DNA of 12,337 nucleotides from Candidatus Vampirococcus lugosii (GCF_018420025.1 NZ_JAEDAM010000028.1:1-12337); one strand, 5' to 3'; counted from the first letter of the stretch, positions 1-12,337 are shown. Program-made: numbers and translations. The notes: generated from the sequence alone by a model not told the origin.

Positions 1-10
1 TAAAATGTAT

Positions 11-1606
11 TTATTTTTTCTTTTTAGCTTTGGAAACTAATGGTCTTCCTCCATCTCATTTTGTATAAAAAGATCTAATAATTTTTTTTGAGTCTTCAGA
101 ATTAACAGTTATGAAACTAAAATCATTAAGAACTTTTAAATCATCAATATTTTTAGAATCTACTCAAGATCATTCACAAATATAATCTATAATTTCTTTT
201 GGAGACTTACCAGTACTTTTTCACATTGCTACAAATAATCTTGCTTGTCAATCGTCATCAAATGATTTACTATTTATAACTTTAGGTTCAGATATATCTT
301 GATATTTTCTTTCTGCAAATTTGTCTTTCATTAATAATCTAATTAATGAAGAAACGACAATTTCAGATTTATCCAATTTTAAAAGTTCTTTTGCCAAATC
401 AATATTTTCTTCAAATTTATTTTTATCAATAATATTTCAAATTCATTCTATAAGTTTTTCCCTTTGTCTATCCATTATATAACTAATATCTGGTATATCT
501 TCTTTTATTATTTTAGAATTAGTTTTTCTCATAATATTGTTTATTTTGTATCTATCTTGTGGAGTTACAAATGTAATTGCAATTCAATCTTTTCAAGCTC
601 TTCATGTTCTTCATATTCTGTGTGTATAATCTTCTGTATTTTCTGGTATAGAATAATTAATTACATGACTTAAATTATTTACATCAAGACCTCTAGCAGC
701 TACATCAGTTGCTATAAGTATTTTAGTATATCATTTTTTAAAATTTAATATAACTTTTTCTCTTTGATTTTGTGATATATCTCAATGAATAGAATCAGCA
801 TTATATCATTTTTGTTTTAAACTTCTATTAAGTTCATCAACATCAATTTTGGTTCTACAAAAAACTATTCCATAAAAATCTACCTCAATATCCAATATTC
901 TATACAAAAGTTCAGATTTATCTCTAGGTTTAACTAAATAATATTTTTGTTCTACAGTATCACTCGTAAGTGTTTTAGATTTAACTTTAATAGTTTCAAA
1001 TTCTTGCATATAATTTGTTGCAATTTTCATAATAGCTTTGGGCATTGTTGCAGAAAATAATATAGTTCTTTTTTCAGTAGGAGTATTTTTTAATATTTCT
1101 TCAATATCATCTATAAATCACATATTTAACATTTCATCAGCTTCATCAAGCACAAAATATTCAATTTTGGAAAAATCAATAGCTTTATTTTTAAGATGAT
1201 CAATAATTCTTCATGGAGTACCAACTAATATATCAATTCAAGATTTAATTTTTCTTTTTTCTTTTATGTATGATTGTCATCAATATATAGTAAATACACT
1301 TATATCTCTTTTTCAAACAAAAGAATTTATTTCATTTCATACTTGTATAGCTAATTCTCTAGATGGACATAATACCACAGCTTTTATATGTTTTCATTTT
1401 TTGTTTTTTAATAAATTCTCAACTATAGGAATACCAAATGCAGCAGTTTTACCACTTCAAGTTTGGCTTTGACCAATTAAATCTTTTTCATTTTTAATCA
1501 ATATTGGCCAAGTTTCTTCTTGTATAGGAGATGGTTTACTAAATCATTTTTGTTCTAATATTTGTATTGTTCATTTACTTAATCCATATTCTTCAAATAT
1601 ATTCAT
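11..1606 (-). CDS. deaD: DEAD-box ATP-dependent RNA helicase with a C-terminal DbpA-type RNA-binding extension (DeaD/CshA-like), 531 aa
   Basis: With TGA=Gly there is one uninterrupted frame from ATG (1606-1604) to TAA (13-11). I checked all codons outside the track ORF for in-frame TAA/TAG and found none. Helicase motifs occur in the expected order: PSPIQ, motif I SQTGSGKTAAF (first G is TGA at 1457-1459), PSRELA, GTPGR, DEADEM, SAT, ARGLD, and motif VI HRIGRTGRAG (three G encoded by TGA). The track ORF 806-1045 is an internal fragment of this gene. Confidence 0.9.
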
Positions 1607-1695
1607 ATTAATTTTGATTATGTTAATTTTGTTAAATAAAAAATAGTAACTATATTTTTTTTTCAAAAAGAAAAAATATTACCAAAAACATTTGC

Positions 1696-1723
1696 ATTAT
1701 AATCTTTTATTTATTAATTTCAA
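1696..1723 (-). promoter_or_regulatory. Candidate sigma70-type promoter for the helicase gene (TTGAAA-N16-TATAAT on the minus strand)
   Basis: The plus strand reads attata at 1696-1701 and tttcaa at 1718-1723, separated by a 16-nt spacer. It lies about 90 nt upstream of the ATG at 1606. Such hexamers arise easily by chance in DNA this AT-rich. Confidence 0.25.
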
Positions 1724-1904
1724 TAGAGAATTACAGACATTATGTAACAAAAACATTAAAATATAAACAAAAAACAGAGATATCAGTAATATTATACTGA
1801 CAAATTTAAAATTGCCAACACACAATTATTAAAAAATCTCTTGTATTTTAAATATTTAATAATTACTAACTATTAATTAGTTTACTTAATTAAATTAATA
1901 AAAT

Positions 1905-2270
1905 ATGGAAGAAGAAAAAAATACAAATAATTGAACAGATAGCGAAAATATTAAACTTTGATGAATTTTATTTTTTGTATGAAATATATTTTGATTATGG
2001 TGAATAATTTTGGCAGTAGTATATTACATAACGAAACAAAAAGAGTTATCAAAAAAAGATGTAGAAGCTTTTTATGGAATGTTTAATTTTTTCATATCTT
2101 ATTTAATATATTCAATTATATGAATAATATTAATATTTGTTATGGTATGATTATTTATATTAATAATAATATTCATTCTTTGATTTATTTTTTCAATTAT
2201 ATGATTAATAAAACACTTAAAATGAGAATCATACCACTACCCTTTGAGTATAAGATTTCTTAAAGTTTAA
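1905..2270 (+). CDS. Small integral membrane protein, DUF4870/COG3296 (Tic20-related)-like, 121 aa
   Basis: The frame runs from ATG 1905 to TAA 2268-2270 and contains 11 in-frame TGA read as Gly. The product has hydrophobic segments (GGILFFVGNIFGLWGIILAVVYY, FNFFISYLIYSIIGIILIFVMVGLFILIIIFILGFIFSIIG). Its C-terminal KGESYHYPLSIRF resembles the tail of that family. The family assignment is from memory, not from a search. Confidence 0.6.
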
Positions 2271-2280
2271 ATTTATCTTA

Positions 2281-9734: not shown

Positions 9735-11186
9735 TTAATTTAATTTAGATAGAAAAATTTTTTCTAATTCTCACATATTTATAACAAAACCATCAGGCAT
9801 ATAATTTGGTAAATCTAAATAATTCATACTCCAAGAATTTTTGGAAATACTATTTTCTCTAAAATAGTTTAAATTTAATAAGACATAATCTTTCAAAATT
9901 TCTTGAAATAAAAAATGTTTTTGTGATTTATTTAGATTTATTTTTTTATTCAAATTGTGTTTTATATAAATTTTTTCCAATAAATTATATATATAAACTC
10001 ATTTAGATATTTTTTCTTCTTTTCATTGAAAATAAAATATATCTTTTTTTTCTTCAAATATTTCTTCTGAAACAGAATGTTTTTTTTCATCAGAATTCAA
10101 TTTTTCACATACACTAGATTTATCTGTTTCAATATCTTGAGTATCTTGAATATTTTCAGAATGATTTATATTATTATATTCATAATAAGTTTTATTATAT
10201 AAATAATTATGTCAAACTTTATCAAAAAGATCCGTTTCTTTATCAGGCATTCAACTTATAGAATCTGCTTTATTTGAAACTCATCATAAAACATCAGCAG
10301 TATTTACTGCAGTCATTAAATTTATAAATTCATTAAACTTTTCATATCAAGATTTGTATGCATCAAAATTTGTCAAAAAAAATGAACCTCATAAAAATGC
10401 AAAAAAAGAAAATGAAGCCAAAATATTAAAACCTATATCAAAATTTACTTTGTAAACAGTTTTGGAATGTATATCCTTTACTATTTTGTATATAAATCAA
10501 AAAATCAATAACAAAAAAGAAATAAAAACTCATAAAGGTAAAAATATTGAAAAAATTAATAAAAATATTGGAAAAGTTATAAACCAAAATCACCAAATTT
10601 TTAATAGATCAAAAGTTTTTCATCTTTTGAAAGTTTCTAACTTATTAAAAAATTCAAAAAAATAAATATATTGATTATAATTTTGTGCTACTAAAAAAAG
10701 CATAAAAAATTTTATTTTTTTCCAAGTAATATTATCTACTTCAATTTTCAATTCTTTGACCAAAAAAGATATAAAAAAAGGTTCCCAAATATATTTGAAT
10801 GAATAATTATTATATTTTATCAAAAAAGATTTTATATAATGAATAACATTATTATCTTTAATAAGATTTACTTCACTATTATAATCTTTTAGTTCAAAAG
10901 AAATTTTGTTAAAATCTTTTATATTTCCAAAAAATTTATCTGCAAAATATCAATAAAAAATATTATTTGGTATTTCTTTATCTTTATATATTGTAGAAAT
11001 AATTTTACTTTTATTTTTATTTTCCAAATCTAAATTTCCCAAGGATTCAAAAAAATATTCAAAATTAGAACTTATCATTTCTTTATTTTGAAATATATTT
11101 TTTCGTAAAACAAAAGAATTCTTTGAACTTAAAATATGTTCAAAAGTATCCTTATCACATATATGATCTGAATAATTTTTATTCAT
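9735..11186 (-). CDS. Hypothetical membrane protein, 483 aa, no family recognised
   Basis: The frame runs from ATG 11186-11184 (in-frame TAA immediately upstream at 11192-11190) to TAA 9737-9735. I followed it codon by codon. It joins three track fragments (10950-11186, 10620-10823, 9771-9980) that share one frame and are separated only by TGA codons. The central hydrophobic block is KIWGFWFITFPIFLLIFSIFLPLGVFISFLLLIFGFIY followed by FNILASFSFFAFLGGSFFL, which suggests about 3 TM helices. Soluble Asn/Lys-rich domains flank it. Confidence 0.7.
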
Positions 11187-11224
11187 TTTTTATTTTTATT
11201 TTTAATACTATTTAAAATTAATAT

Positions 11225-11253
11225 ATTATATATATTTATTGACATAAAGTCAA
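11225..11253 (-). promoter_or_regulatory. Candidate promoter for the 483-aa membrane-protein gene (TTGACT-N17-TATAAT, minus strand)
   Basis: The plus strand reads attata at 11225-11230 and agtcaa at 11248-11253 with a 17-nt spacer. The predicted transcription start is about 30 nt upstream of the ATG at 11186. Confidence 0.4.
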
Positions 11254-11372
11254 AAAATATAGCATATTTTATAAAAAATAAAAATATAATATCTAAACAA
11301 TCCCCAAAAATTAATTATATTTACTATAAATAAACACTAATTTTATATTGACAAAAAATAATTCTAATTTTA

Positions 11373-11400
11373 TTGACAAATAAACAATAAATATTATAAT
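11373..11400 (+). promoter_or_regulatory. Consensus sigma70-type promoter for the secreted-protein gene (TTGACA-N16-TATAAT)
   Basis: TTGACA lies at 11373-11378 and TATAAT at 11395-11400, and both hexamers are perfect. The ATG is at 11437, giving a leader of about 30 nt. Confidence 0.45.
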
Positions 11401-11436
11401 TGATTTGTTTAATATTTTATATATTAAAACATAATA

Positions 11437-12337
11437 ATGAAAAAATTATTAATTATATTATTAAGTATATTATTTATTCATTGAATATGAAATGCTTTAT
11501 TTTATATAAAATTACCTTTTAGTAATCCTTTTAGAGATCGTTTGCATCAAGTTCATTTTACTCAAGATAATGAATTTATGTGATATGTTTTGTTGCTTAA
11601 TTATGAAGCAATTAATAATACTAAAAAAATAAAATTAGGAACAAAAGATAGAGATTGCAATAAACAATTAAGATGATTTTATTTTAATCCTATGAGATGA
11701 AATAATGTATATCCTATAGATGAAAAAACATTTAATGCTTGGAAAAATATTAATAACACTAATAATAATGTTTTTATAAATTATTTTACTTGATGATTAT
11801 ATACTGAATGTAATGAAAATCCACATAGTATACATTGACAAATAAAATATAAATATAAAGATATTAGTGAAGATAACTATTTTACTTTGACTGCTGGATT
11901 TGGAAAATATTCAAATATATATGATATAAATTTAACAGAATTTCAACATAATTTTCAAGTAGAAAATCATACTAACTGAAATTTGCCTATATGATTAATT
12001 TATGATAGTACTTATTGAGCTTGATTTGTATGATGAAAGGTAGATGGTGATATAGAAGAATTTATAACTTATGATTTTACAGGTAATAAAAGTATAAATA
12101 GTGAAATATCTTCTTTTACTTGAGGTAATATAACATTTACTTGATTACCTACTATTATTAGAAATAATAGTTCAATATCTCAAACTAGATTGGAAAATAT
12201 TTTGTGAATCTCTTGAATTTTTTCAAGATGAATTCAATATGATGATGATTTAGATTGAATTGAAGAGCAAGCAGTTACAAATTTATCTACTACACAAACT
12301 TATCAAGTATGAGATAAATGATTATGAATTTGAGATG
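11437..12337 (+). CDS. Hypothetical secreted or surface protein with an N-terminal signal peptide; 5' partial, continues beyond the window
   Basis: The frame opens at ATG 11437 and stays open with TGA=Gly for 300 codons to the window edge. The frame was verified at 11821 and 12301. The N-terminus MKKLLIILLSILFIHGIGNA has a basic, hydrophobic and small-residue layout with no lipobox Cys. The rest is Asn/Gly/Thr-rich with no domain I recognise. Confidence 0.7.

Follow-up and report, generated by a model that had tools for sequence, protein, structure and literature searches.

The contig analyzed here, a stretch of 12,337 nucleotides from Candidatus Vampirococcus lugosii (GCF_018420025.1, NZ_JAEDAM010000028.1:1-12337; hereafter the window), is best explained by a code in which UGA is a sense codon for glycine and termination occurs at UAA and UAG only, a reading that we hold to be almost certain. 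Alignments of orthologous codons point to a second departure in the same organism, since the rare codon CGA is probably read there as tryptophan and not as arginine. When the window was read with the standard code, the stop-to-stop open reading frames (ORFs) of at least 80 amino acids added up to 2,643 nt, against 15,159 nt when TGA was taken as sense. The latter reading gave 15 coding sequences (CDS) and one tRNA-Lys gene, and the CDS set occupies 86% of the window. Fourteen of the 15 CDS are complete; eleven end in TAA, three in TAG and none in TGA, and no internal TAA or TAG was found in the 3,539 codons counted over the whole set. The standard code gave no more than ten ORFs when the minimum length was set at 60 amino acids. 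Five of them are in-frame pieces of three genes (deaD, ligA and the gene of a 483-residue protein) and the other five are antisense or out of frame. An earlier reading of this DNA, made from the sequence alone (the sequence-only reading), had proposed that UGA means glycine throughout the window and had given the same stop codon counts and the same dissection of the standard-code ORFs; our recounts agree with it.

Codon usage is in line with the assignment of UGA to glycine. TGA is present in all 15 CDS and accounts for 178 of the 3,539 codons (5%). Among glycine codons of the whole window it was found 178 times out of 229 (78%), next to 34 GGT, 17 GGA and neither GGC nor GGG. Glycine makes up about 6.5% of the residues if TGA is counted and about 1.4% if it is not. 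As the sequence-only reading had noted, TGA is also the majority glycine codon of single genes, with 27 of 35 in ligA, 9 of 13 in def and 5 of 8 in trxA on recount. Pfam domains aligned from the first to the last profile position across many in-frame TGA codons.

We looked at the residues that TGA codons meet in homologous proteins using the NAD-dependent DNA ligase LigA (706 aa; 7604..9724, plus strand; 27 TGA, stop TAA) and a DEAD-box RNA helicase of the DeaD/CshA-like type with a DbpA C-terminal domain (531 aa; 11..1606, minus strand; 25 TGA, stop TAA), which matches the Pfam profiles DEAD (1-166/167), Helicase_C and DbpA and is identical to MBS8121979.1. Both were aligned with TGA masked as X against standard-code homologues containing more than 6% Gly and less than 1.2% Trp (36 for LigA; 42 for DeaD, with hits labelled SR1, Gracilibacteria or Peribacteria left out). 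Log-odds per codon were calculated in the manner of Codetta for codons with at least four occurrences, with background-proportional pseudocounts. All 33 control codons were given their correct residue, including TGG, which was assigned to Trp as normal. For TGA the log-odds were +80.5 nats for Gly, -76.4 for Ala, the next residue, and -104.3 for Trp. In LigA, 20 of the 27 TGA columns have a Gly plurality and 13 of these are invariant Gly. The corresponding figure for DeaD is 17 of 25, and these columns include the Walker A motif, a GG doublet and all four positions of motif VI, where glycine by TGA had been claimed before. Pooling both proteins, Gly is the plurality residue in 37 of the 52 TGA columns and reaches at least 90% in 32 of the 52, and Trp is the plurality residue in none. 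Gly-plurality columns were met by 16 of 18 GGN codons and by 23 of 1,162 other codons that are neither Gly nor TGG (Fisher p = 1e-42 for TGA against these other codons).

Residue-level alignments with proteins of known structure in the PDB lend further support to UGA as glycine. In peptide deformylase (Def, 178 aa; 2350..2886, minus strand; 9 TGA, stop TAA), identified by Pfam Pep_deformylase and named peptide deformylase in the NCBI record of V. lugosii, TGA falls on the glycines of GxGLSAPQ, EGCLS and HExDHLxG. Six of the eight TGA codons of ribosomal protein uS12 (138 aa; 5478..5894, minus strand; stop TAA; recognized by Pfam and identical to MBS8121987.1) coincide with Gly in all five chains shown. 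Thioredoxin (TrxA, 109 aa; 6193..6522, plus strand; Pfam Thioredoxin; stop TAA) has five TGA codons, and those of WC[TGA]PC (6295-6297) and EYxG align with Gly. The positions given by the sequence-only reading for the Walker A codon (1457-1459), for EGCLS and HLNG of def (2575-2577 and 2425-2427), for WCGPC of trxA and for TRGDGFVG of ligA (8060-8077) proved exact. The checks it had suggested, a tally of TGA columns and a code inference, thus gave glycine in the LigA and DeaD profiles and in the Def, uS12 and TrxA structures for the former, and in LigA and DeaD for the latter.

The glycine reading is correct but it is not a discovery, since the literature already has it and the public annotation of this contig incorporates it. 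Seven window proteins, translated with Gly at TGA, equal GenBank/RefSeq entries of V. lugosii (LigA and six others, under MBS81219xx and WP_ accessions). The NCBI LigA of this organism is the same as the X-masked window LigA except for a G at all 27 masked positions, and the deposited proteins carry Gly at every TGA. The next-best LigA match, at 62%, is that of Ca. Absconditicoccus praedator. NCBI taxonomy places V. lugosii, a predatory organism, in Candidatus Absconditibacteriota (SR1), a lineage within the candidate phyla radiation (CPR), which bears out the origin in Absconditabacteria or Gracilibacteria that had been predicted from the DNA. UGA was reportedly recognized as a glycine codon by Rinke et al. 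in 2013. The V. lugosii genome paper (Moreira et al. 2021, PMC8080830) states that UGA encodes glycine and used Prodigal with table 25, and proteomics of the sister clade gave 40 peptides for Gly and one for Trp at UGA (PMC4032931). With UGA as glycine established for the organism and its clade, no new question is opened by it. For UGA there is indeed no difference from genetic code 25, with which the window shares UGA as Gly, UAA and UAG as sole stops and a small AT-rich CPR genome. The sequence-only reading had named code 25; this holds for UGA, and as a description of the complete code it probably does not, for table 25 keeps CGA as Arg and CGA here behaves as Trp, a behaviour that was absent from that reading.

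CGA occurs three times in the 3,539 codons (about 8 per 10,000) and CGG not at all, whereas AGA occurs 92 times. At LigA residue 531 (9194..9196, plus strand) the CGA codon is matched by TGG in A. praedator (L081) and in L085, by CGA in three other relatives (L082, L084 and L086) and by AGA in none, although AGA is found 13 to 21 times per gene in the relatives' ligA. Standard-code LigA proteins have E, A, S, P or D in this column; they were obtained by a LigA-alignment contig scan with back-translated patterns using Gly, which returned almost only standard-code bacteria. The second codon, at residue 28 of the 483-aa protein (11103..11105, minus strand), faces TGG in the only orthologue found, that of L088 (VL[CGA]KNIF versus SF[TGG]KNIF). 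The third, at Def residue 78 (2653..2655, minus strand), lies in an indel-rich variable loop for which 18 weak relatives only were available, and its alignment is uninformative. Across the five ligA genes compared from the SR1 clade, CGA (n=8, in four columns) pairs with CGA in 44% of cases, with TGG in 28% and with other Arg codons in 0%; for the 89 AGA/AGG codons that served as a control, 70% of the pairings are with Arg codons and 0% with TGG.

This pattern agrees with the extended code of Absconditabacteria described by Shulgina and Eddy in 2021 (PMC8629427), in which Codetta predicted CGA and CGG to be Trp and matching tRNAs were found. The rarity of CGA, the lack of CGG, the dominance of AGA and the exchange of CGA with TGG in orthologues are common to both, while the evidence in the window consists of two informative CGA codons and its CGG count is zero. 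CGA as Trp would therefore extend an already predicted kind of reassignment and would not be a new kind. Concerning CGG, the more distant and higher-GC relative L085 (GCA_054012395.1, 5186-7597) has this codon on the invariant Trp of LigA HHPRW and also on an invariant Tyr column.

The alternative is that table 25 is the complete code, CGA being an ordinary rare Arg codon whose alignment with TGG is coincidental. We consider this unlikely, though less so than the alternatives for UGA discussed below. The deposited V. lugosii proteins carry Arg at the CGA positions, and the Def codon aligns to Arg in Plasmodium Def, albeit in the variable loop. Several observations weigh against tryptophan: the sample is small, with two informative codons among only three in the window and a ligA part that amounts to four columns shared by descent, and the CGG signal is mixed because another CGG of L085 LigA is on a Lys/Arg column. 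An arginine codon would nevertheless have to be found opposite TGG at two of its three sites in the nearest orthologues, and to pair with TGG and never with another Arg codon in the SR1-clade ligA genes, where AGA and AGG behave in the opposite way; the CGG at the HHPRW Trp of L085 and the Codetta prediction for the clade speak against it too. We therefore favor tryptophan for CGA. Arginine codons are not mentioned in the V. lugosii genome paper, and our literature search found no paper joining Vampirococcus, CGA and tryptophan. If CGA is Trp, the code with its two departures (UGA to Gly and CGA to Trp) matches no NCBI translation table, and table 25 slightly mistranslates this genome by putting Arg for Trp, for instance at LigA residue 531 and at residue 28 of the 483-aa protein. 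The CGA evidence extends a clade-level computational prediction to one of the few Absconditabacteria with directly observed biology, and the proteome of V. lugosii could serve to confirm the first reassignments of sense codons to be predicted in bacteria.

Returning to UGA, an ambiguous meaning has to be considered, in which the codon is mostly Gly but is subject to context-dependent termination or to cross-reading of UGA and UGG by the tRNA-Gly(UCA) and tRNA-Trp. Wobble at U34 permits such an ambiguity between UGA and UGG (Shulgina and Eddy, PMC8629427), and in the relative L087 a TGA codon occupies the invariant Trp position of LigA HHPRW. In the window no TGA of LigA or DeaD is on a Trp column, no CDS ends at TGA, protein lengths match those of homologues across many TGA codons, and TGA was found as near as three codons before genuine TAA stops. 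These observations make ambiguity very improbable. As for the L087 codon (ENA ERZ28616963 scaffold_759, 10001-12229), it is located at LigA column 378, where all other sequences have TGG (or CGG), and it may reflect an error of sequencing, a genuine change from Trp to Gly or a case of UGA/UGG cross-reading.

A dedicated tRNA with anticodon UCA would read UGA as glycine. It would carry the glycine identity elements G1:C72, C2:G71, G3:C70 and U73 and be charged by glycyl-tRNA synthetase, and release factor 2 (RF2) would have been lost, leaving RF1 alone to terminate at UAA and UAG. For the clade, a tRNA(UCA) bearing such glycine elements was described, with RF2 present only in non-recoded relatives (PMC8629427). 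This part of the mechanism rests on the clade literature because the decoding genes lie outside the window. Some findings count against an exclusive glycine meaning or fail to show its machinery. About 30% of the LigA and DeaD TGA codons are in variable columns from which no residue can be deduced, and some context-dependent termination at UGA would be compatible with the sequence, although nothing in the window requires even partial ambiguity. Searches with ARAGORN and Rfam detected no tRNA(UCA) in the 12,337 nt, nor tRNA(UCG) or tRNA(CCG), the tRNA-Lys(UUU) being the only tRNA, and the Pfam profile search revealed no release-factor gene among the window proteins. ARAGORN likewise found no tRNA(UCA), tRNA(UCG) or tRNA(CCG) in about 150 kb of flanking sequence from SR1-clade relatives, and the supplements of the V. 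lugosii genome paper contain no table of tRNAs or RF2.

UGA as tryptophan (table 4) would be the recoding ordinarily met in reduced bacteria of very high AT content, and the G+C content of the window is about 21%. This code is known from Mycoplasma, Spiroplasma and some insect endosymbionts. As in those groups (Mycoplasmatales, Entomoplasmatales and several insect endosymbionts), UGA has been captured here in an AT-rich reduced genome, with a presumed loss of RF2, but the amino acid is Gly and not Trp. Automated pipelines have put Trp at TGA in many relatives; the protein database contains numerous relatives from metagenomes that were given table-4 translations, with Trp at every TGA, and the copy of the window helicase in Logan (P0121) likewise carries Trp at TGA. 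The resulting composition, with 4-6% Trp and about 1% Gly, is absurd. The lack of any Trp-plurality column among the 52 refutes tryptophan, as do the log-odds and the normal behaviour of TGG, and we regard it as extremely improbable. The table-4 entries of the relatives are a systematic mistranslation of code-25 organisms. For annotation, standard-code ORF calling leaves fragments of just three of the 15 genes, and table 4 gives translations in which Trp stands at about 5% and Gly at 1%.

Finally, a standard-code genome whose in-frame TGA codons stand for selenocysteine, lesions of pseudogenes or sequencing errors is barely conceivable and already refuted: beyond the mere presence of these codons nothing speaks for it, they are spread over all 15 genes with no internal TAA or TAG, they align to Gly and not to Cys or selenocysteine, the same TGA codons recur in independent assemblies, TGA is common to the same LigA columns in 49% of the orthologue pairings among five SR1-clade genes, and selenocysteine recoding, which shares with this case an in-frame UGA that is translated, involves few sites per genome, needs a selenocysteine insertion sequence and falls on Cys/selenocysteine columns, while UGA is here 5% of the codons.

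The choice among glycine codons appears to follow base composition. GGC, GGG, CGG and CCG are all missing from the 3,539 codons. In seven ligA orthologues (including L081, L082 and L084-L087), TGA makes up 93% of the Gly codons at a G+C of 0.23 but 16-25% at 0.36-0.38. Since this share drops with rising G+C, AT pressure probably explains the Gly codon shares; under the extreme AT bias of the window UGA is now the main glycine codon, GGC and GGG having vanished.

The same genes were also seen in other public data. In a Logan assembly of a public run, the helicase is on a 1,693-bp contig and has one amino acid difference (V417I) with respect to that encoded at 11-1606 of the window, and further window genes were seen in Logan on contigs that reach 8,407 bp. 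The window thus has a counterpart in a second read set or strain.

The remaining genes of the window were assigned as follows. A DUF4870 membrane protein of 121 aa (1905..2270, plus strand; Pfam PF09685; identical to MBS8121980.1) uses TGA for 11 of its 12 Gly codons and ends in TAA. The tRNA-Lys (anticodon UUU; 3096..3170, minus strand), found by ARAGORN and by Rfam RF00005 with 75 bits, is the sole RNA gene. At higher coordinates the minus strand carries ribosomal protein genes: bL28 (64 aa; 3247..3441; Pfam Ribosomal_L28, 6.5e-19; 3 TGA; identical to MBS8121982.1), bL25 in its Ctc form (199 aa; 3485..4084; Ribosomal_L25p and TL5_C; 9 TGA) and bL19 (126 aa; 4120..4500; Ribosomal_L19; 10 TGA), the three with TAA stops, and uS7 (156 aa; 4974..5444; Ribosomal_S7, 7.9e-44; 5 TGA; stop TAG). 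Between bL19 and uS7 there are two minus-strand ORFs, both "hypothetical" at NCBI and both ending in TAG: one of 44 aa (4533..4667; 1 TGA; RefSeq WP_275052393.1) and a strongly basic one of 84 aa (4686..4940; 4 TGA; identical to MBS8121985.1). The rpsL-rpsG pair is placed here without fusA/tuf next in line, unlike in most bacteria.

A Na+/Ca2+ exchanger-like membrane protein (286 aa; 6640..7500, plus strand; stop TAA) uses TGA for all 23 of its Gly codons, and its score against the Pfam profile Na_Ca_ex rose from 24.3 bits with X at TGA to 28.5 bits with G, the cutoff being 24.9. The hypothetical membrane protein of 483 aa (9735..11186, minus strand; 14 TGA, stop TAA) had one detected orthologue (P0243/L088) with 43% identity. 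The last gene, open at the 3' end of the contig (11437..12336, plus strand; 24 TGA), encodes a hypothetical secreted or Gly-rich protein of at least 300 aa. Pfam and NCBIfam profiles gave no match for the 44-aa, 84-aa, 483-aa and at least 300-aa proteins.

The 25 nt upstream of 13 start codons are nearly pure A/T, with no Shine-Dalgarno-like purine-rich motif visible. The sign of the GC skew tracks gene orientation; it is negative over positions 1-6000 (minus-strand block), positive over 6001-10000 (plus-strand block) and negative again over the minus-strand gene of the 483-aa protein, the coding strand being G-rich relative to C.

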